From: Candidatus Nezhaarchaeota archaeon WYZ-LMO8
Lineage (GTDB): Archaea; Thermoproteota; Methanomethylicia; Nezhaarchaeales; WYZ-LMO8
Reading direction: 5' to 3'
Assembly: GCA_004347965.1 (NCBI GenBank)
Contig: QNVF01000011.1
Span: forward strand, 1-35,925
Length of the DNA stretch: 35,925 bases
Shown: piece after piece, positions 543 through 35,925 of the stretch
Layout of the letters: each line of letters starts with the position of its first letter
Numbering within the stretch: the stretch's first letter is position 1
Program-made: the position numbers and the translations under genes
The notes under the pieces: model-generated
Told to the model about the DNA's origin: nothing
The model's database searches: none
What the model saw: only the letters and a program-made list of their open reading frames with translations

Positions 543-1071
543 ACGCACTCACTGCATAGATGAGCTTATCTCTATCTCGAGGTAAAATCATGTAGTTGGT
601 ATCGTGATGGCTTTTTTCGATTAGCTCTTCATTGAAAGTGCAATATGCTATTATTGGTTGCTCAGTCCCCTTGATTTTCTCTTCAAGATCCTTAAAATCC
701 TTAAACACTATTATTTTACCTACATCAAATCTTTTAGCTACAAGCCTATGAAAACCCTCCATTATTAGCAAATCTATTTTCAATCCTCCAATTAGCTTTA
801 GAGCCTCCTCAAGGTCTCTCGGCTCTCTCTCAATACTTAAGATAAGACCTGCTTCTAGTGGAGAGATGTAAGTAGTCACTTTAGCTCCCGCACGTCTATG
901 TCTCCAAGTATCGCTACCCTCACTATCAATTGTAAAGTTGGAGTGATGTATATGCTTCATGGTGCCAACTATCAATCCCATCTCCGTAAAGTGTCTTACC
1001 AGCATCTCTACAATACTTGTTTTACCCGATTTCTTGCTTCCAAGAACTGCTATCTTTTTCGTGCCCCTCAC
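526..1071 (-). CDS. mobB: Molybdopterin-guanine dinucleotide biosynthesis protein MobB
   Basis: P-loop GSKKSGKT, MKHIHH, DSEGSDTWRHRRAGA and EGF motifs; converges on mobA with a 17-nt overlap. Confidence 0.9.
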   Translation of the reverse strand: MRGTKKIAVLGSKKSGKTSIVEMLVRHFTEMGLIVGTMKHIHHSNFTIDSEGSDTWRHRRAGAKVTTYISPLEAGLILSIEREPRDLEEALKLIGGLKIDLLIMEGFHRLVAKRFDVGKIIVFKDFKDLEEKIKGTEQPIIAYCTFNEELIEKSHHDTNYMILPRDRDKLIYAVSAFMKSL

Positions 1072-5588: not shown

Positions 5589-6527
5589 CTAAGACGCTAT
5601 TGGAATCTTAAGCTTCTTGATCAGCTCTTTGTACCTATTTCTAACAGTAACCTCAGTCACTTGCGCTGCTCTAGCTATTTCCTTCTGAGTCTTCCTCTCA
5701 CCAGTTAATAGAGAAGCAATGTATATAGCAGCTGCTGCAAGACCAGCTGGATCCTTGCCTGCAGTCAAACCAGATTTTCTAGCTTGCTGTATTATTTCAA
5801 TGGCCTTTCTCTGTAGCACACCACTTAAGCTTAAGGAGCTAACTATTCTAGGTACAAAGTCGACTGGATCAGCTATCGGTATGTTAAGTCTAACATGCCT
5901 TAGCAATAGTCGATAGCATCTAGCAACATCCTTCCTTCCAGCCCTAGTGCAATCTGCTATCTCATCAAGAGTTCTCGGAATTTTGAGCTGCCTACAAGCA
6001 GCATATATGGAGGCTGCCATAACTGACTCTATTGAACGTCCTCTAACGAGACCTGCCTTAACAGCTGCCTTGTATATCTTAAGGGCTTCCTCCTTAACGT
6101 TCTGAGGTAGATTTAATCTGAAAGCTATGCGTTCAAGATGATTAGTTGCCTGCTGGATATTCCTATCTTGTGAAGTCTGGATTCTACTCCTTATTTGCCA
6201 TCGTCTCCACCTAGAAACTTCAAATACTTTTTGAGGGCTTAGTTTATGACCACTTGAATCTCTAGTAGGCCACTGTATAACTGTAGGAGATACTCCTTCA
6301 ACTGAGGCAGTTGAAATTGGAGGGCCAACTCTATCCCTTTTCTCTCTTTCCTCAGGTGTGAATGCTCTCCATTCTGGACCTTGGTCTATGAGCTTTTCAT
6401 CTATGACCAGACCACAATTCATGCATGTAAGCTCCCCACGATCATAACTCCTAATTATATTTGAACTACCACAGTCTGGGCAACGATCAATACCCTTTAC
6501 TTCCACATCAACATTCTTTGCACCCAT
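5589..6527 (-). CDS. tfb: Transcription initiation factor IIB
   Basis: Zn ribbon CPDC/CMNC, GPEWRAF B-reader, two cyclin repeats (GRSIE, GKDPAG) and [13 protein letters not shown]. Confidence 0.98.
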
Positions 6528-6892: not shown

Positions 6893-6988
6893 GGGCCCGT
6901 GGCGCAGTTCGGATAGCGCGGCGACAACTGCAAGGTTGCCGTAGGCCTCCTAAGCCGTTGGTCGGGGGTTCAAATCCCCCCGGGCCCG
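6893..6988 (+). tRNA. tRNA-Arg(CCT) with a 21-nt intron at non-canonical position 29/30 (6924-6944)
   Basis: Acceptor GGGCCCG/CGGGCCC, D arm GCGC/GCGC, T arm GGGGG-TTCAAAT-CCCCC. Removing 6924-6944 restores the anticodon stem GCGGC/GCCGT with loop CT-CCT-AA. CCA is not encoded. Confidence 0.93.
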
Positions 6989-7050
6989 CTAGCTAAAGAT
7001 TTAAAAGCCTTCTTAAAGCTCAAATTGAACTTTGAGGTTGGTGCTAAGGA

Positions 7051-29367: not shown

Positions 29368-30312
29368 GTGGAATTTAAGCATTTATGCGAAGAGCTGGAT
29401 AAAATCTTGAGACTTGACATAGGTTTTAGAGGCGTTGTTGACGGTCTTTACTCAGCAGCTAGATCAATCACTGGTAAGCCTCTCACACAAGCTTTCTCGG
29501 AGATCATTAATTCTATGTCGCTCGGACATATAATAGTGATTACTGGGTTTAAGGTTGTACCTAAGGCAGTTCAAGAGACTGATGGACCGTCCGGTGCAAT
29601 AGTGCTTGCAAAGACCCTTGCATCATTAGGGTTTAGCGTCTCCCTAGCCATCGAAGAAGACTCTGTTGAAATTCTTAAGGCTGGGCTCGAAGTCTTCGAC
29701 CTAAAGTGTCCTGTACATCCTCTGCCAGTAAACGTTCCTTTAAGCAATTTGTCTCAAAGGTTACTCAGGGAACTTAAACCTAGCGCATTGATCTTCATTG
29801 AAAAAGCTGGGGCTAACGATGCCGGAGTATATCACAACATGTTTGGGGTCGACGTTACTAAGTACCATGCTAAGGTTGAGAGGCTCTTAGAAGATGCTCG
29901 AAATATGAGGAGCAAAATCATAGCGATAGGTGATGGCGGGAATGAGGTGGGGTTCGGACTTGTGAGGGAAGCAGTAAGAAAGCTCGTCCCTCGAGGAAGT
30001 GATTGTGGATGTCCATGCCGTGGAGGTATAGCTGCATCGTCAAAAGCAGATGTGGTCATAGTCTCGTCGATATCTAACATTGGCTGCTACGCTGCTTCAT
30101 GCTCCCTCCTAGTCTCCAATAACTCTCCTTGGTTTTACAATCACAACTTAGAGCTTAAGCTCTTGAAGGCAATAATTGATTTTGGTGCAGTTGACGCGAA
30201 GACAGGTGATTCCTGCATGATGGTTGATGGGGTACCTGCCGAGGTTATAGCATCGCTGATGGACGTTATGGCTCACATGGCTGAAAGGTATCTTAAGATG
30301 AGAAGGTTATAG
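29368..30312 (+). CDS. DUF4392 / D-glutamate cyclase C-terminal-like protein
   Basis: TGF...ETDGPSGA, IEKAG, YHNMFG.D, IGDGGNEVG.G, SNIG and DG motifs. GTG start at 29368 follows AGGTG and avoids overlap with the divergent gene. Confidence 0.75.
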   Translation: MEFKHLCEELDKILRLDIGFRGVVDGLYSAARSITGKPLTQAFSEIINSMSLGHIIVITGFKVVPKAVQETDGPSGAIVLAKTLASLGFSVSLAIEEDSVEILKAGLEVFDLKCPVHPLPVNVPLSNLSQRLLRELKPSALIFIEKAGANDAGVYHNMFGVDVTKYHAKVERLLEDARNMRSKIIAIGDGGNEVGFGLVREAVRKLVPRGSDCGCPCRGGIAASSKADVVIVSSISNIGCYAASCSLLVSNNSPWFYNHNLELKLLKAIIDFGAVDAKTGDSCMMVDGVPAEVIASLMDVMAHMAERYLKMRRL

Positions 30313-30838
30313 ATATCGGTGTAAGGCCTAAGTGAATGTAAATGTCCTTGATGAAGTTGATGCAGTCATTTACATCCTGATGAGGTAGGAAAGCTAGGTG
30401 AGAGAAGCACTTACAATCACTACATCCAAACCCCTTTATGCATTTCGTTAAGGAGTTTATTGCAGATGCTATTGTACATTCAAACCTCTTATCGACCATT
30501 GATGCGACGACTCCAACAACTGTCGATGACTTAGATGAGGTTAAGTAGTCTATGTGCCACTTCAACTTCTTCCTCTTCTCGAGATGTCTTAGGACCCTAC
30601 CTCTAAGGCTTAAAGCTCCTCGACCTAGTCCTGAGCCGGTGTACGCATAGAATCCTTCCATTACATCCATAATCCCCAACGAGCCTATGTGCATCCTTCC
30701 TCCTTTCACAACGTGAATTATTACCGTATACACACCCTTCTTAGGGAGAATGTTGAGGGGAGGCTCGGCAAGCCTGTCAACATCATGCCTAAAGTCAGAA
30801 CCCGGGTTACAAGTCATAGCCTCCACCTCGTATAGCAT
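30293..30838 (-). CDS. DUF123 GIY-YIG (Uri) family nuclease
   Basis: KGVY, G.YAYTGS, RVLRH, WHIDYL, EC, GFGCSDCKC.SHL motifs; start uncertain. Confidence 0.85.
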   Translation of the reverse strand: MLYEVEAMTCNPGSDFRHDVDRLAEPPLNILPKKGVYTVIIHVVKGGRMHIGSLGIMDVMEGFYAYTGSGLGRGALSLRGRVLRHLEKRKKLKWHIDYLTSSKSSTVVGVVASMVDKRFECTIASAINSLTKCIKGFGCSDCKCFSHLAFLPHQDVNDCINFIKDIYIHLGLTPISITFSS

Positions 30839-30861
30839 CTCGACAGCGCATTAACGTTTCG

Positions 30862-30870
30862 CATATATAT
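30862..30870 (+). promoter_or_regulatory. TATA-like element upstream of the C/D sRNA
   Basis: CATATATAT 26-34 nt upstream of the sRNA terminal stem; may also serve DUF123 on the minus strand. Confidence 0.45.
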
Positions 30871-30895
30871 GGTTCGCGCTAAAGATTAAATTGAA

Positions 30896-30959
30896 CAGGG
30901 CTGTGATCGAGGGTTCAAAGCGCTGAGAGATGATGATGCCGACTACACTGTGAGCCCTG
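30896..30959 (+). ncRNA. Box C/D methylation guide sRNA
   Basis: Terminal stem CAGGGC/GCCCTG; variant box C GTGATCG (30903-30909), 13-nt guide, D' CTGA (30923-30926), C' ATGATGA (30930-30936), 13-nt guide, variant D GTGA (30950-30953). Intergenic, 64 nt. Confidence 0.8.
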
Positions 30960-31039
30960 GAAAAACCTTTAAAGTTAAGCAATTAGCGTGCTTAAATGTG
31001 AAGTTATGTTCGAGAAAATTAGAATTCATGTGAGGGAAG

Positions 31040-31558
31040 TTGATGTCTAAGTCTAGAGGGCAGAAAAAACAGGAGGGCTCTCAAGAGAACAACCCCGACA
31101 AGGTAATTCTCATACACTCTGAGAGGGGTAATATCAGGAGGGTTGTTGAGCTTAGTGGACCTCTACATGAAGTTGTCAAGAAAGCTGCTCTTGAGGCTTT
31201 GCAGCTATGGAATCCCGAAACATCCGACTTCGTGGTCATGAGGGATAACTACACTAAGACCTTAAAGCTACCACTAACTAAGGAAGAGTACGAGGTTTAT
31301 TCAAAATTCGAGTTGCGCAGAGGATCTAAAGAAGCCGAGGTTATTATCCCTATTTACATAGCATCGTTTAACAATGAATGGAGAGAAACTGACTACTACG
31401 ACAATGAGATATTCATAATAGCCCCCAAGTTGCCGCAAGAAGACTTAGAGGAGCTCAAGAGGAGAGCTATGATTGCTACTTCGGAAGAGCAGCTTGAAGC
31501 AAGTGGCTTAAGTGGTCTAGAAGAAGATTTAGAAGAGCTTGAAGAGGAGGAAGAGTAG
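31040..31558 (+). CDS. Conserved archaeal protein, DUF2286-like, with acidic C-terminal tail
   Basis: SE.G, WNPETSDFVVMRD and IPIYIASF.NEW recalled as DUF2286-like; tail LEEDLEELEEEEE. Confidence 0.6.
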   Translation: MMSKSRGQKKQEGSQENNPDKVILIHSERGNIRRVVELSGPLHEVVKKAALEALQLWNPETSDFVVMRDNYTKTLKLPLTKEEYEVYSKFELRRGSKEAEVIIPIYIASFNNEWRETDYYDNEIFIIAPKLPQEDLEELKRRAMIATSEEQLEASGLSGLEEDLEELEEEEE

Positions 31559-34162
31559 CTATTTATTGAAGAACGAAGTTATGCTCTTAACCCCAAGTAT
31601 CTCATCAAAGTCTAGGCCTAGAGCAGTAAGCACTTGCTCAAATGTAGTCCTCATGTGCTCAACGTACTTATCTACATCTATTTCGTCTATCCTTGCAAGC
31701 TGGATAGGTTTAACGCCTGGCTCTCCCTTTACTTTTACGAATCTTATTATTGAGCCAGAATCTACATTCTTTTTGTAGGCCATCAAGAGCTTAGCTGCCT
31801 TCACGTGTTGAGAGGAAACAGCGTACTCTGATGGGTGCTTCGACAGCATGACAGTAAAGGCCAGCTCATCGAGACTATACCTTCTCTCCTTCAACCTATC
31901 ATAGACTCTTCGTGCCAAATTTCTGATTAGAGTTTTTGATCTCTCAAAGGCTTCTGGCGTGTCTACTTTGCTTAGTAAGCTCACAAAGTTCAAGAATGCC
32001 TCCTTCAGAAATGGTGGTGTATTCCTCTTTTTTCCAACAAGACCTTTAATGTCAACCTCACCGTTCACGAGGACTCCCACATAGTTCTTCTTTAATCCAG
32101 AGAAAGCTACAAACTTATAGTGCTTGTCGTAGTCCAAGTCTACCTTAAGCTCTTCCTCAGCCCATCGCATTAGTTCCTTTATCCTTAGCTCCTCAGGCTC
32201 GTAGATGAAGATGCTGTCTGTATCACCGTAGAGAACCTTGAGCCCTAGACTTTGAGCTTTCTCTATAGTCTTAGTTATTATGTACCTACCTATAGCTGTT
32301 GTGCTCTCTGCAACTGGAGGGCAATATAGTGAGAAGTTTGAGGAACCCATGACTCCATAGGAGGCATTCAATATAACCTTCAAGCTCTTCTCAACCACCT
32401 CGTAGAGACTCCTCTTTGCTGGATCTTGGACCTTCCTAGACATAGGTTTGAACCATAGTGCTCTAATGTCTCGTAGCATTCCTATCAATATAGATGTTAA
32501 TCCCTGTTTTTTCACGCAAACCCAGTGCGGCGTTGAGGGTATTGTATTCGACTTACATTCTGGATGATTGCAGTTTATGACTTCATATGATAAGTTCCTG
32601 GTCTTAACTATGCTTGGATATAGTGATGTGAAGTCGAGAACCGCTACGTTGAAGTAAACTCCTGCTGGAGGTTTCAGTACTATCGCACCCATGTACTTCT
32701 TGCCCTTTATCCTTGCCTCCGTTACTGCTTGACCCTTGACAGCTATTATCTCATCTTTCCTAGGTATTAGGTAGTTCCTCTTACGGTGTTCGAAGTATAG
32801 CATATTCCTTATCCAATTCGATATGCCTTGTCTGGTCACATCCTCCATGCTCATCTTGGCTATGCGCATGAAGAGTATCACAAGTTTCATTACAAGATTA
32901 TCGTTAAACTTCGTAAACTGCATCACCAGCTCAGCATCCCTCAAGCAGTAAGATGCTAATTGAGCATAGCTTAATTGTGAGACCGAATCTTTAAGCTGAA
33001 TTTTTCTGACTGAGAGCAATGCTTCAGCAACAGCATCTAAGGTCACGTCTCTGTACTTGTTGCTGAAGGCATAGCCTTGAATGGACTTGTTGTGGAAGAA
33101 CTTATAGAGATCCACATGAACTGATGATGCTAAGAGTGCTGCAGGATTTTCGCCCGCTGTCATCGATATTGGTACTTTATCCCTAGAAAAGCCAAGCTTA
33201 AGTGCTCTATGAAGTATGTAGTTTAAGTCGAAGTTATCTCCATTGAATGTGAGTATCACTGGGTACTCACATAGTAGCTTGAAAATTTCCTCCAACATCT
33301 TGTACTCGTCATAGAAGAACCTCACCTCACAATCCTGTGGAAACTCGTCTGGTTGCGAGGACTCAACGTTTTCTCTTCTTAGTAGGAAGACGAGCTTTCT
33401 CCCGTCGGAGTCTACGAGACTAAATGCTATTATTGGGTACAGAGCTTCTTTAGGGTTTGGAAGCTTATCAGGGTCAGGGGAGTAGACCTCTATGTCTATT
33501 GCTGCTCTCCTTATGTCGGGTATAGGTGCTAAGAAGAGTGGTAGCCACTCTTTTGCGAGCTCTTTGATTGCTACCTGATCTTCAAAGAGCTTTAAAACTT
33601 CTTCAGATTCCTCTCCACTAGGCTCTACATCGACTTTGACTAGCTTCCCATTCTCAACCTTATAGAACATCCCTGGTACAAGTTGTCTATCGAAGATGTA
33701 GCAGTTGTGGTACTTTATGTCAGCTTCCCAAGCTTTGGGTAGTAGATCCCTTATAGCCCCCCTTCTTCCACCTATAGCTAGAGGATCTGAGGCAATTATC
33801 TTCGTAAGCTCAACTTCCCTTTCTTTAAGAACATCAAATTTTTTAACCCTCTCAAAGCCCAAGAAGCCTGGATGCGATACGACCTTGCTTCTCTTGAGAT
33901 CCTCAATATTCATGTCGGTTAAGCAATAAGGCTTGTGACCAGAATCATCATACCAGAAGTGCATAATGCGCTTTTCAACGTCATAAAGTTTAAGGAGAGC
34001 TTTCTTTGCTTCACCACTATAAGAGACCGATAAGAGTATGCACACCCCAGTGTTCCTAGCTGGTTTAAGTTCAACTTTCTCGGGAATGTAGAGCTCCTCT
34101 TCGTACTCAGCTTCAAAACCCTCCTCGACTTCAAAATACTCCTCAAGCAGCCTGCTCACCAT
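31559..34162 (-). CDS. polB1: Family B DNA polymerase, crenarchaeal PolB1 type
   Basis: GHKPYCL, DPLA and AWEADIKY (PolB1-like N-terminus); Exo DIEV, FNGDNFD, YCLRDA; Pol DFTSLYPS, K...NASYG, YGDTDS and KKNY. No intein. Confidence 0.95.
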   Translation of the reverse strand: MVSRLLEEYFEVEEGFEAEYEEELYIPEKVELKPARNTGVCILLSVSYSGEAKKALLKLYDVEKRIMHFWYDDSGHKPYCLTDMNIEDLKRSKVVSHPGFLGFERVKKFDVLKEREVELTKIIASDPLAIGGRRGAIRDLLPKAWEADIKYHNCYIFDRQLVPGMFYKVENGKLVKVDVEPSGEESEEVLKLFEDQVAIKELAKEWLPLFLAPIPDIRRAAIDIEVYSPDPDKLPNPKEALYPIIAFSLVDSDGRKLVFLLRRENVESSQPDEFPQDCEVRFFYDEYKMLEEIFKLLCEYPVILTFNGDNFDLNYILHRALKLGFSRDKVPISMTAGENPAALLASSVHVDLYKFFHNKSIQGYAFSNKYRDVTLDAVAEALLSVRKIQLKDSVSQLSYAQLASYCLRDAELVMQFTKFNDNLVMKLVILFMRIAKMSMEDVTRQGISNWIRNMLYFEHRKRNYLIPRKDEIIAVKGQAVTEARIKGKKYMGAIVLKPPAGVYFNVAVLDFTSLYPSIVKTRNLSYEVINCNHPECKSNTIPSTPHWVCVKKQGLTSILIGMLRDIRALWFKPMSRKVQDPAKRSLYEVVEKSLKVILNASYGVMGSSNFSLYCPPVAESTTAIGRYIITKTIEKAQSLGLKVLYGDTDSIFIYEPEELRIKELMRWAEEELKVDLDYDKHYKFVAFSGLKKNYVGVLVNGEVDIKGLVGKKRNTPPFLKEAFLNFVSLLSKVDTPEAFERSKTLIRNLARRVYDRLKERRYSLDELAFTVMLSKHPSEYAVSSQHVKAAKLLMAYKKNVDSGSIIRFVKVKGEPGVKPIQLARIDEIDVDKYVEHMRTTFEQVLTALGLDFDEILGVKSITSFFNK

Positions 34163-35793: not shown

Positions 35794-35879
35794 GGGCCCG
35801 TCGTCTAGCTTGGATAGGACGCCAGCCTGCGGTTCATGCAGAAAGCTGGAGGTCCGGGGTTCAAGTCCCCGCGGGCCCG
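35794..35879 (+). tRNA. tRNA-Arg(GCG) with an 11-nt intron at 37/38 (35833-35843)
   Basis: Acceptor GGGCCCG/CGGGCCC, D arm GTCT/GGAC, anticodon stem CCAGC/GCTGG, loop CT-GCG-G^A after removing TTCATGCAGAA, T arm CGGGG-TTCAAGT-CCCCG. Confidence 0.93.
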
Positions 35880-35925
35880 CTTAAAACTTAGATCATTTTC
35901 TTGCTGCCACACGCTCCTACACCTA

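Follow-up and report, generated by a model that had tools for sequence, protein, structure and literature searches.

A box C/D sRNA family of Methanomethylicia with a reversed k-turn base pair and guides predicted to pair with tRNA-Gln

Results

Layout of the sRNA

The window analyzed here is the full 35,925-nucleotide stretch of contig QNVF01000011.1 (positions 1 to 35,925, forward strand) in the assembly GCA_004347965.1 of Candidatus Nezhaarchaeota archaeon WYZ-LMO8. An earlier note on this DNA had described, at 30896-30959, a box C/D small RNA (sRNA) whose kink-turn (k-turn) carries a reversed base pair and whose D' guide would direct methylation of the wobble uridine of tRNA-Gln(UUG). The sequence is as it was described, with boxes, stem and k-turn pairs all present, and, judged from the DNA, window positions 30896-30959 on the plus strand are a genuine, unannotated box C/D sRNA. 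Its parts run in the order CAGGGC-UGU-GAUCG-AGGGUUCAAAGCG-CUGA-GAG-AUGAUGA-UGCCGACUACACU-GUGA-GCCCUG, as follows.

30896-30959, plus strand: archaeal box C/D sRNA, ~64 nucleotides (nt)
30896-30901, plus strand: 5' half of the terminal stem, CAGGGC, pairing with 30954-30959; C30901 is k-turn position -1b
30902-30904, plus strand: k-turn bulge of 3 nt, UGU (U30902-G30903-U30904)
30903-30909, plus strand: box C, GUGAUCG; G30905 and A30906 lie in the sheared pairs, U30907 in the U:U pair and C30908 in the flipped pair
30910-30922, plus strand: D' guide, AGGGUUCAAAGCG, 13 nt; the N+5 nucleotide is A30918
30923-30926, plus strand: box D', CUGA
30927-30929, plus strand: GAG loop of 3 nt closing the C'/D' k-loop, variable in length and sequence among homologs
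30930-30936, plus strand: box C', AUGAUGA
30937-30949, plus strand: D guide, UGCCGACUACACU, 13 nt; the N+5 nucleotide is A30945
30950-30953, plus strand: box D, GUGA; G30950 pairs with C30908
30954-30959, plus strand: 3' half of the terminal stem, GCCCUG, forming a 6-bp stem with 30896-30901

The terminal k-turn is in place, with the sheared pairs G30905:A30953 and A30906:G30952 followed by U30907:U30951 and C30908:G30950. Two letters differ from the consensus boxes RUGAUGA and CUGA, and the pair that they form is retained. The k-turn is closed by the 6-bp terminal stem. Boxes C' and D', separated by 3 nt and both conserved in homologs, supply the internal k-loop, and the two spacers, for which about 12 nt is usual, measure 13 nt each here and 11-13 nt among homologs.

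The earlier note had warned that motif scanners could miss this RNA, and indeed no Rfam 15 family reaches its gathering threshold at the locus. In a permissive scan of 30700-31150, C/D-box families make up six of the eight sub-threshold matches, at 30899-30955 on the plus strand. The best of these, sR14 (RF01145), falls short at 22.6 bits of its gathering score of 38; it shares the box layout and spacing, but its guides are unrelated, and the locus belongs neither to it nor to the Rfam 15 C/D families sR1, snoPyro_CD, sR58 and sR17.

Conservation and distribution

By BLAST, the element is present in all nine other genomes of the window's own family (f1) and in one genome from another family. 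A covariance model built from 16 copies and run on 62 genomes of the class Methanomethylicia gave matches of 37.7-86 bits in 44 of them, and these are the homologs referred to below; the next-best matches, at ≤34.7 bits, are presumably other C/D sRNAs. The boxes are conserved in relatives; had they not been, the earlier note would have counted its reading as refuted. Strong matches occur in 10/10 genomes of f1 (the window's genome counted), 1/1 of f2, 4/4 of f3, 6/6 of f4, 2/2 of f6, 4/5 of f7, 1/1 of f8 and 1/1 of f9. Family f5 has them in 15 of 32 genomes, with none in one genus of six genomes. Nezhaarchaeales are the closest relatives among the genomes that carry the sRNA family. Outside the class, a second model, run on 151 genomes sampled from the phylum, found matches in f33 (2/2) and in f37. 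When the matches of a pattern scan were scored again by model, 31 archaeal loci reached at least 33.6 bits, labelled Methanomethylicia, Nezhaarchaeales, Culexarchaeum, Culexmicrobium, Thermofilum and Thermofilaceae, and bacterial pattern matches reached no more than 27 bits. These matches indicate that the sRNA family is widespread in Methanomethylicia, Nezhaarchaeales included, and is present also in Thermofilaceae.

Double-sided changes occur at all six pairs of the terminal stem across the 44 homologs. In the 44-row alignment, 89.8% of terminal-stem cells are paired, as against 66.7% in shuffles (0 of 500 shuffles were as high), and shifting the stem partner by 1-3 columns lowers pairing to 20-51%.

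The reversed k-turn pair

The pair between position 6 of box C and position 1 of box D (C6:D1, k-turn position 4b:4n) is C30908:G30950 in the window. In 13 rows of the alignment made by the tool, position 1 of box D had fallen into a gap column, and we therefore parsed the boxes directly from the sequences. C6:D1 is Watson-Crick in 39 of the 44 homologs and takes four forms (C:G 31, U:A 5, G:C 2, A:U 1), the rest being one G:U and four mismatches (G:A 2, A:G 1, A:A 1). Because Watson-Crick pairing is held in 39 of 44 through four different forms, the flipped pair is a true base pair kept by compensatory change, and on the aligned boxes we take it to be real and covarying, as the earlier note had proposed with just such an alignment of relatives in mind. 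All 10 genomes of the window's own family have C:G at this pair, and it is the other families of the class that supply the covariation; the canonical G:C is confined to family f6. The neighboring C5:D2 position is chiefly U:U, with A:U and G:U also seen. Box C takes the forms AUGAUCG (13), GUGAUCG (10) and other variants (21), and box D the forms GUGA (31), AUGA (8), UUGA (2), CUGA (2) and GUAA (1). The GUAA box D belongs to the copy in genome G010, where one sheared A:G pair becomes A:A.

Eight other C/D candidates in the same genome have G at box C position 6 and a CUGA box D. They were collected with the Rfam snoPyro_CD model, since a strict C/D regular expression gave only 4 canonical raw matches in the genome and was too strict for a survey. 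A second flipped-pair candidate, on contig C50 at 559-623 (+), combines a GUGAGCG box C and a GUGA box D with a terminal stem that is also similar. A run of 10 uninterrupted Watson-Crick pairs links its D' guide to 16S rRNA near 1199-1208 of the relative G006, so the flipped pair is not confined to tRNA guides.

The sRNA resembles known archaeal box C/D sRNAs in its length of ~64 nt, its terminal stem, its k-turn with tandem sheared G:A pairs and a U:U pair, its C'/D' k-loop, its two spacers of ~12-13 nt, its agreement with the N+5 rule and the presence of genes for the protein partners. It departs from them at 4b:4n, which is C:G here, whereas the available text of Ashraf, Huang and Lilley (2017, PMC5689011) gives U:U at 3b:3n and a 4b:4n pair "strongly conserved as G:C" for archaeal box C/D k-turns. 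That text also states that C:G at both 4b:4n and -1b:-1n, as in Kt-7, favors folding in Mg2+ without protein. Since -1b:-1n is C:G in 43/44 homologs and 4b:4n is C:G in 31/44, the k-turn of this family would by these rules be more prone than usual to fold free of protein. The likeness to Kt-7, a ribosomal k-turn, extends to C:G at both positions, but the sRNA keeps U:U at 3b:3n as in box C/D RNAs and sits in a guide RNA rather than in rRNA.

The D' guide and the tRNA-Gln anticodon arm

The gene for tRNA-Gln(UUG) lies on contig C2 at 6025-6100 on the minus strand and that for tRNA-Gln(CUG) on contig C21; neither has an intron. The anticodon arm of tRNA-Gln(UUG) from G27 to U43 reads GCGGG-CUUUGGC-CCCGU. 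The earlier note had rested its target on the string GCUUUGRACCC and on a perfect duplex of 11 pairs, and in both it was mistaken: G31-C41 of this tRNA is GCUUUGGCCCC, which departs from the string at position 38, and the actual duplex has 9 Watson-Crick pairs, 1 G:U pair and 1 internal mismatch. Numbered from box D', the guide forms the Watson-Crick pairs C2:G31, G3:C32, A4:U33, A5:U34, A6:U35 and C7:G36, then a U8:G37 wobble, a U9/C38 mismatch and the Watson-Crick pairs G10:C39, G11:C40 and G12:C41. The longest contiguous stretch is thus 7 pairs (6 Watson-Crick and the G:U), set off by the mismatch from the three G:C pairs. The same note had placed the N+5 position on U34, and here it was correct: A30918 stands opposite U34 of tRNA-Gln(UUG), where the corresponding nucleotide of a tRNA-Gln U34 guide is expected.

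The D' guides of the family follow a common pattern, GGG(G)-N(1-3)-CAAAGC. It complements G31-G36 as well as C38/39-C41, the bases that face G37 being variable and unpaired, and the CAAAGC core plus GGG is kept in 39/44 homologs. Throughout the class, tRNA-Gln hardly varies in its D arm or its anticodon arm. We ranked the guides of all 44 homologs against the 38 tRNAs of the window's genome as stand-in targets, and tRNA-Gln(UUG) came first for 22 D' guides, second for 9 and below third for 5; the 8 guides for which it came third belong to the window's family. It is this family-wide view, of invariant tRNA arms, a shared guide form and the ranks, that leads us to assign tRNA-Gln(UUG) as the D' target, and the comparison supports its U34 as the best target for the family as a whole. 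The proposal of tRNA-Gln(UUG) in the earlier note accordingly holds at the level of the family, but in this genome alone the assignment is not unique, as this tRNA ranks third of 38 by duplex energy behind tRNA-Leu(UAG) and tRNA-Gly(GCC).

In four relatives with complete rRNA, the D' guide has no rRNA match better than 10/13 scattered pairs. The full 13-nt complement of either guide occurs in this genome only at the sRNA gene itself, and in G006 (95% complete) perfect 11-nt guide targets are likewise found only at the sRNA gene. Comparing both guides with the tRNAs and rRNAs of this genome, a check proposed in the earlier note, matched the tRNA-Gln arms, yielded no perfect target and brought out a match of the D guide to 16S rRNA that is weighed below.

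We also considered whether the base opposite G37 is never C, so that m1G37 would block pairing. No homolog in the class has C there (0/44), but the wider relative L296 does, and for this reason the argument is not relied on.

Part of the D' guide, GGGUUCAAAGC (30911-30921), is a near copy in the same sense (10/11) of the T-arm/T-loop sequence GGGUUCAAAUC found in many tRNAs here, and this resemblance accounts for the many GATTTGAACCC matches on the opposite strand in relatives. The likeness is probably a coincidence, as other families have GGGGACAAAGC.

The D guide and the tRNA-Gln D arm

The D guide, which the earlier note left out of its analysis, pairs with the D arm of the same tRNA-Gln. 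In the window the duplex joins it to G9-G15 and C16-C20 with A30942 bulged (7 + 4 pairs), and its energy on tRNA-Gln is -17.1 kcal/mol as against -13.8 kcal/mol for the next tRNA, a value reached by 12 of 2000 shuffled guides. The core that D guides have in common throughout the family, GCCGCUAC, is perfectly complementary to tRNA-Gln G12-C20, a stretch of D stem and D loop that includes G18 and G19, and the guide is complementary to positions 9-20 of both tRNA-Gln isoacceptors. When the D guides of the 44 homologs are set against the 38 tRNAs of this genome, tRNA-Gln is the top tRNA for 35.

Changes in the guide also track the tRNA. In family f6, tRNA-Gln has U16 (GUAGUGGC) and the guide has changed to match (GCCACUAC), a case of guide-target covariation, and where guides within the window's family differ opposite G10, G18 and G19, the change is C-to-U, so that wobble pairing is retained. 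The covariation at U16 together with these pairing-preserving changes argues for a real constraint on D guide pairing. The site that the N+5 rule would select is less steady: it is U13 in f1 and some of f7, G12 in f5 and f6, and A14 in f3 and f4. Because the N+5 site drifts in this way between families, the D guide may be mainly a binding hold, and we speculate that it serves tRNA binding more than methylation at a fixed site.

Genomic context

The genome comprises 78 contigs (1.35 Mb, 43.5% G+C, 93% complete). Its family B DNA polymerase shares 80-88% identity with those of metagenome-assembled genomes labelled Candidatus Nezhaarchaeales, Nezhaarchaeota and Methanomethylicota, and the window's DNA occurs in hot-spring metagenomes. 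The machinery of the box C/D ribonucleoprotein (RNP) is present, since the genome encodes fibrillarin (PF01269, 324 bits), Nop5 in a neighboring gene (PF01798, 234 bits) and two L7Ae-family proteins (PF01248, 107 and 65 bits). The rRNA available in the window's genome is limited to positions 4-857 of the 16S model, 23S being absent from the assembly.

The sRNA lies between a DUF123 and a DUF2286 gene, as the earlier note had said and as Pfam confirms. Neighbor counts below refer to the 31 loci with enough flanking sequence.

30293-30838, minus strand: DUF123 gene (Pfam PF01986, E 1.2e-27), adjoining the sRNA in 23/31 loci
31040-31558, plus strand: DUF2286 gene (Pfam PF10051, E 3.4e-36), adjoining the sRNA in 30/31 loci
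30863-30870, no strand assigned: AT-rich ATATATAT, a candidate TATA box ~26-30 nt upstream of the sRNA 5' end

Adjacency to DUF2286 and DUF123 spans families despite changes of order and orientation in family f5, in which the sRNA has its own orientation and sequence and its position and orientation relative to DUF2286 differ. The candidate TATA box is at a similar distance from the divergent DUF123 start and is common to G006, but not to the other aligned members of the family. Just 3' of the sRNA, AAACCTTTAAAGTTAAG (30963-30979) is conserved in the family's genomes and resembles a BRE/TATA promoter for the DUF2286 gene.

In contigs of X13, the one metatranscriptome run that includes this region, cover extends over 31039-31600 and so falls outside the sRNA at 30896-30959. 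One 498-nt contig in X13 joins 31559 back to 31039, a span of 521 nt that matches the DUF2286 reading frame almost exactly; a circular RNA, a tandem copy carried by a related strain, or misassembly at the 3' end, which is rich in GAA/GAG, could each account for it.

The window also holds two intron-bearing tRNA genes, at 6893-6989 and 35794-35880. For the first, ARAGORN gives Cys(gca) when introns are handled and Ala(tgc) when they are not, so that a dedicated archaeal tRNA caller is required to identify it. The tRNA-Gln(UUG) genes of family f6, at loci L078 (G017) and L136 (G020), seemingly have two introns, one after position 37 and one of ~25 nt between acceptor stem and D arm, and ARAGORN makes no call for them.

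Discussion

We think it probable that the window encodes a ~64-nt box C/D sRNA with a reversed 4b:4n pair, both of whose guides address tRNA-Gln, and that the D' guide most likely directs 2'-O-methylation of U34 (Um34). Motif layout, conservation, the covariation of stem and k-turn, the complementarity and the protein genes are all observed directly, and we infer that the sRNA is expressed, assembles into an RNP and methylates its target. In the mechanism that we propose, boxes C and D would fold into a k-turn whose 4b:4n pair, beside the U:U pair, is reversed from G:C to C:G, C' and D' would form a k-loop, and L7Ae would bind both. A Nop5 dimer and two fibrillarins would assemble on the L7Ae-bound sRNA, and the D' guide would pair with G31-G36 and C39-C41 of tRNA-Gln(UUG), placing U34 in the active site to yield Um34. 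The D guide would take a second grip on this tRNA, at the D arm, which would have to unfold for either duplex to form.

Guides of this kind have precedents. In Sulfolobus acidocaldarius, Um34 and G18 methylation of tRNA-Gln(UUG) are attributed to C/D guides (Wolff et al., PMC7668247, in the text available, citing snoRNAdb and Ziesche 2004), so that the Sulfolobus guides for tRNA-Gln U34 named in the earlier note do have a printed source. The likeness is that one tRNA is addressed both at U34 of the anticodon loop and in the D loop; compared by description only, the D-arm site is G18 there and the predicted U13 here (G12 or A14 in other families). The Pyrobaculum sRNA sR27 guides U34 of a single tRNA family, Gln, in 6/6 species, according to the accessible part of Lui et al. 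(2018, PMC6009581). Unlike the sRNA described here, and again compared by description only, sR27 uses its D guide rather than its D' guide on U34, and its other guide is listed in that part of the source without a predicted target. The sR27 prediction, as set out there, demanded 9 consecutive Watson-Crick pairs, and the D' duplex here falls short of that number. The accessible sections of the same survey also predict guides for tRNA positions 12 and 13, and state that unusual boxes let 3-11% of known sRNAs escape its model (PMC6009581). A two-site guide of similar logic is the C/D RNA in the intron of tRNA-Trp, described in PMC7994747, whose two guides act on two sites of one tRNA (Cm34 and Um39), one of them the wobble position; it resides inside a pre-tRNA intron, whereas the sRNA here is a free-standing intergenic gene and the tRNA-Gln genes are intron-less. 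A pattern scan with the canonical box C gave 40 matches, mostly bacterial and due to chance, with 3 labelled archaeal and none labelled Sulfolobus or Pyrobaculum, and PMC1635284 contains nothing on tRNA-Gln.

Several observations weigh against this assignment of target and function. The D' duplex is imperfect, with its G:U at G37 and its mismatch at C38, and neither guide attains 9 uninterrupted Watson-Crick pairs on tRNA-Gln; in a reconstituted system in vitro, as the available text of PMC7229835 has it, substrates of 9-10 bp were methylated efficiently and one of 8 bp was not, with the duplex capped at 10 bp. By duplex energy, the D' guide in this genome prefers Leu(UAG) at -16.6 and Gly(GCC) at -16.0 to Gln(UUG) at -15.2 kcal/mol, and 43 of 2000 shuffled D' guides equal the real one on tRNA-Gln. 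The D guide needs its bulged extra A to pair with tRNA-Gln in this genome, its N+5 site shifts among G12, U13 and A14, and it forms 10 uninterrupted pairs (8 Watson-Crick, 2 G:U; -16.2 kcal/mol) with GGUAGUUGGC(G) at ~251-260 of the organism's own 16S rRNA. In families f2 and f3 (5/5 genomes; loci L119, L120 and L122-L124) the D' guide core is CAUAGC, which sets U opposite U34 although the anticodon arm is unchanged, and by the accepted rule this U:U at N+5 should block methylation. A pattern search for some other target of the CAUAGC guides gave many scattered matches, at ~2-3x control, and no conserved RNA site. Single-sequence fold stability is about that of shuffles (z = -0.26), yet this is usual for C/D sRNAs, and the X13 cover, which could also be listed here, indicates nothing either way.

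A bolder version of the mechanism we put forward as a speculation that is unlikely to be right. On this proposal the sRNA would be a two-armed clamp for tRNA-Gln built on a self-folding, Kt-7-like k-turn, in which the D guide is a non-catalytic anchor that opens the D arm and its contact with the T-loop, giving the D' guide access to the wobble base. Families f2 and f3 would have lost methylation and kept binding, and insertions of one base in each guide would, in the lineage of the window, have extended their reach to U34 of tRNA-Leu(UAG) and to the 16S site.

Somewhat less probable again is that the RNP binds tRNA-Gln by both arms mainly as a clamp or folding helper; methylation would then, for the D guide and some lineages at least, be secondary or missing. 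The drift of the D guide N+5 between G12, U13 and A14, with the pairing core GCCGCUAC retained, would be expected of such a role, as would the retention of the entire RNA in all five f2 and f3 genomes with U facing U34; conserved N+5 mismatches in Pyrobaculum sRNAs have similarly been read as interaction without modification (PMC6009581, in its accessible part). However, the D' N+5 base is A opposite U34 in 39/44 homologs, as methylation requires (it is U in the other 5/44), Um34 is observed in S. acidocaldarius tRNA-Gln(UUG) according to the text available of PMC7668247, and the genome encodes fibrillarin.

It is also conceivable, if rather unlikely, that one-base insertions in both guides of the window's family have shifted or widened their targets, the D' guide acting on U34 of tRNA-Leu(UAG), and perhaps on tRNA-Lys(UUU), and the D guide on ~252 of the organism's 16S rRNA. 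The tRNA-Leu(UAG) duplex is the best for the D' guide here, with U34 at N+5 and the family's extra U paired with A38, but it has an A:A mismatch at position 35, beside the target base. The D' guide makes 10 Watson-Crick pairs with one mismatch on tRNA-Lys(UUU), and 2'-O-methylated U34 is reported for S. acidocaldarius tRNA-Leu(UAG) too (PMC7668247, same available text). The 16S site, for its part, is conserved in four relatives; however, rRNA duplexes of -14 to -17 kcal/mol also arise at several unrelated rRNA sites, and the match may for that reason be chance. Guides outside the window's family do not fit this site and fit tRNA-Gln only. The guide of G007 (GCCACUAC) suits tRNA-Gln with one mismatch and not the 16S site. 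We rate the D guide:16S match as possibly secondary or fortuitous.

We find it very hard to sustain the view that box C is the canonical GUGAUGA with an inserted C (GUGAU-C-GA) and box D a simple C-to-G change, with no compensated pair between them. Infernal's cmscan does align the C as an insertion to sR14, sR1 and snoPyro_CD, which would make the D' spacer 12 nt. This reading fails because homologs with boxes such as AUGAAUA/AUGA and AUGAUAG/UUGA, and likewise AUGAUUA/AUGA and AUGAUGY/CUGA, lack a GA following position 6, a position that pairs with D1, as the 39/44 Watson-Crick count reflects. Least credible of all is that there is no RNA gene here and that the element is conserved intergenic DNA, for instance part of the divergent DUF123/DUF2286 promoter region: the adjacency to DUF2286 in all but one locus, RNA contig cover at 31039-31600 only and the non-significant fold z-score could be cited for it, but it is opposed by the compensatory changes in stem and k-turn pair, the complete C/D/C'/D' layout, guide cores that complement one tRNA, and an orientation and sequence that the element holds as its own while its placement relative to DUF2286 changes in f5.

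A box C/D sRNA guiding tRNA-Gln is therefore the reading that we carry forward. Both RNA and target are of familiar kinds, and existing knowledge of how C/D RNPs work is unchanged by this family; the novelty lies in the lineage, in the variant k-turn and in a pairing that is bipartite and imperfect. The family is a natural test of the k-turn rules, in that the usual 4b:4n G:C is replaced in 42/44 members, mostly by C:G and sometimes by U:A or A:U, and it offers a ready set of variants for the effect of 4b:4n on folding and on assembly with Nop5 and L7Ae. Consensus-based scanners will miss flipped-pair genes such as these.

Nezhaarchaeales and Methanomethylicia are uncultured archaea, of hot springs and of methane cycling, and to our knowledge C/D sRNAs have not been catalogued in either. 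With this family, guides devoted to the tRNA-Gln wobble uridine gain a deep-branching example, which suggests that Um34 modification, or at least the contact between guide and tRNA, is old within Thermoproteota.

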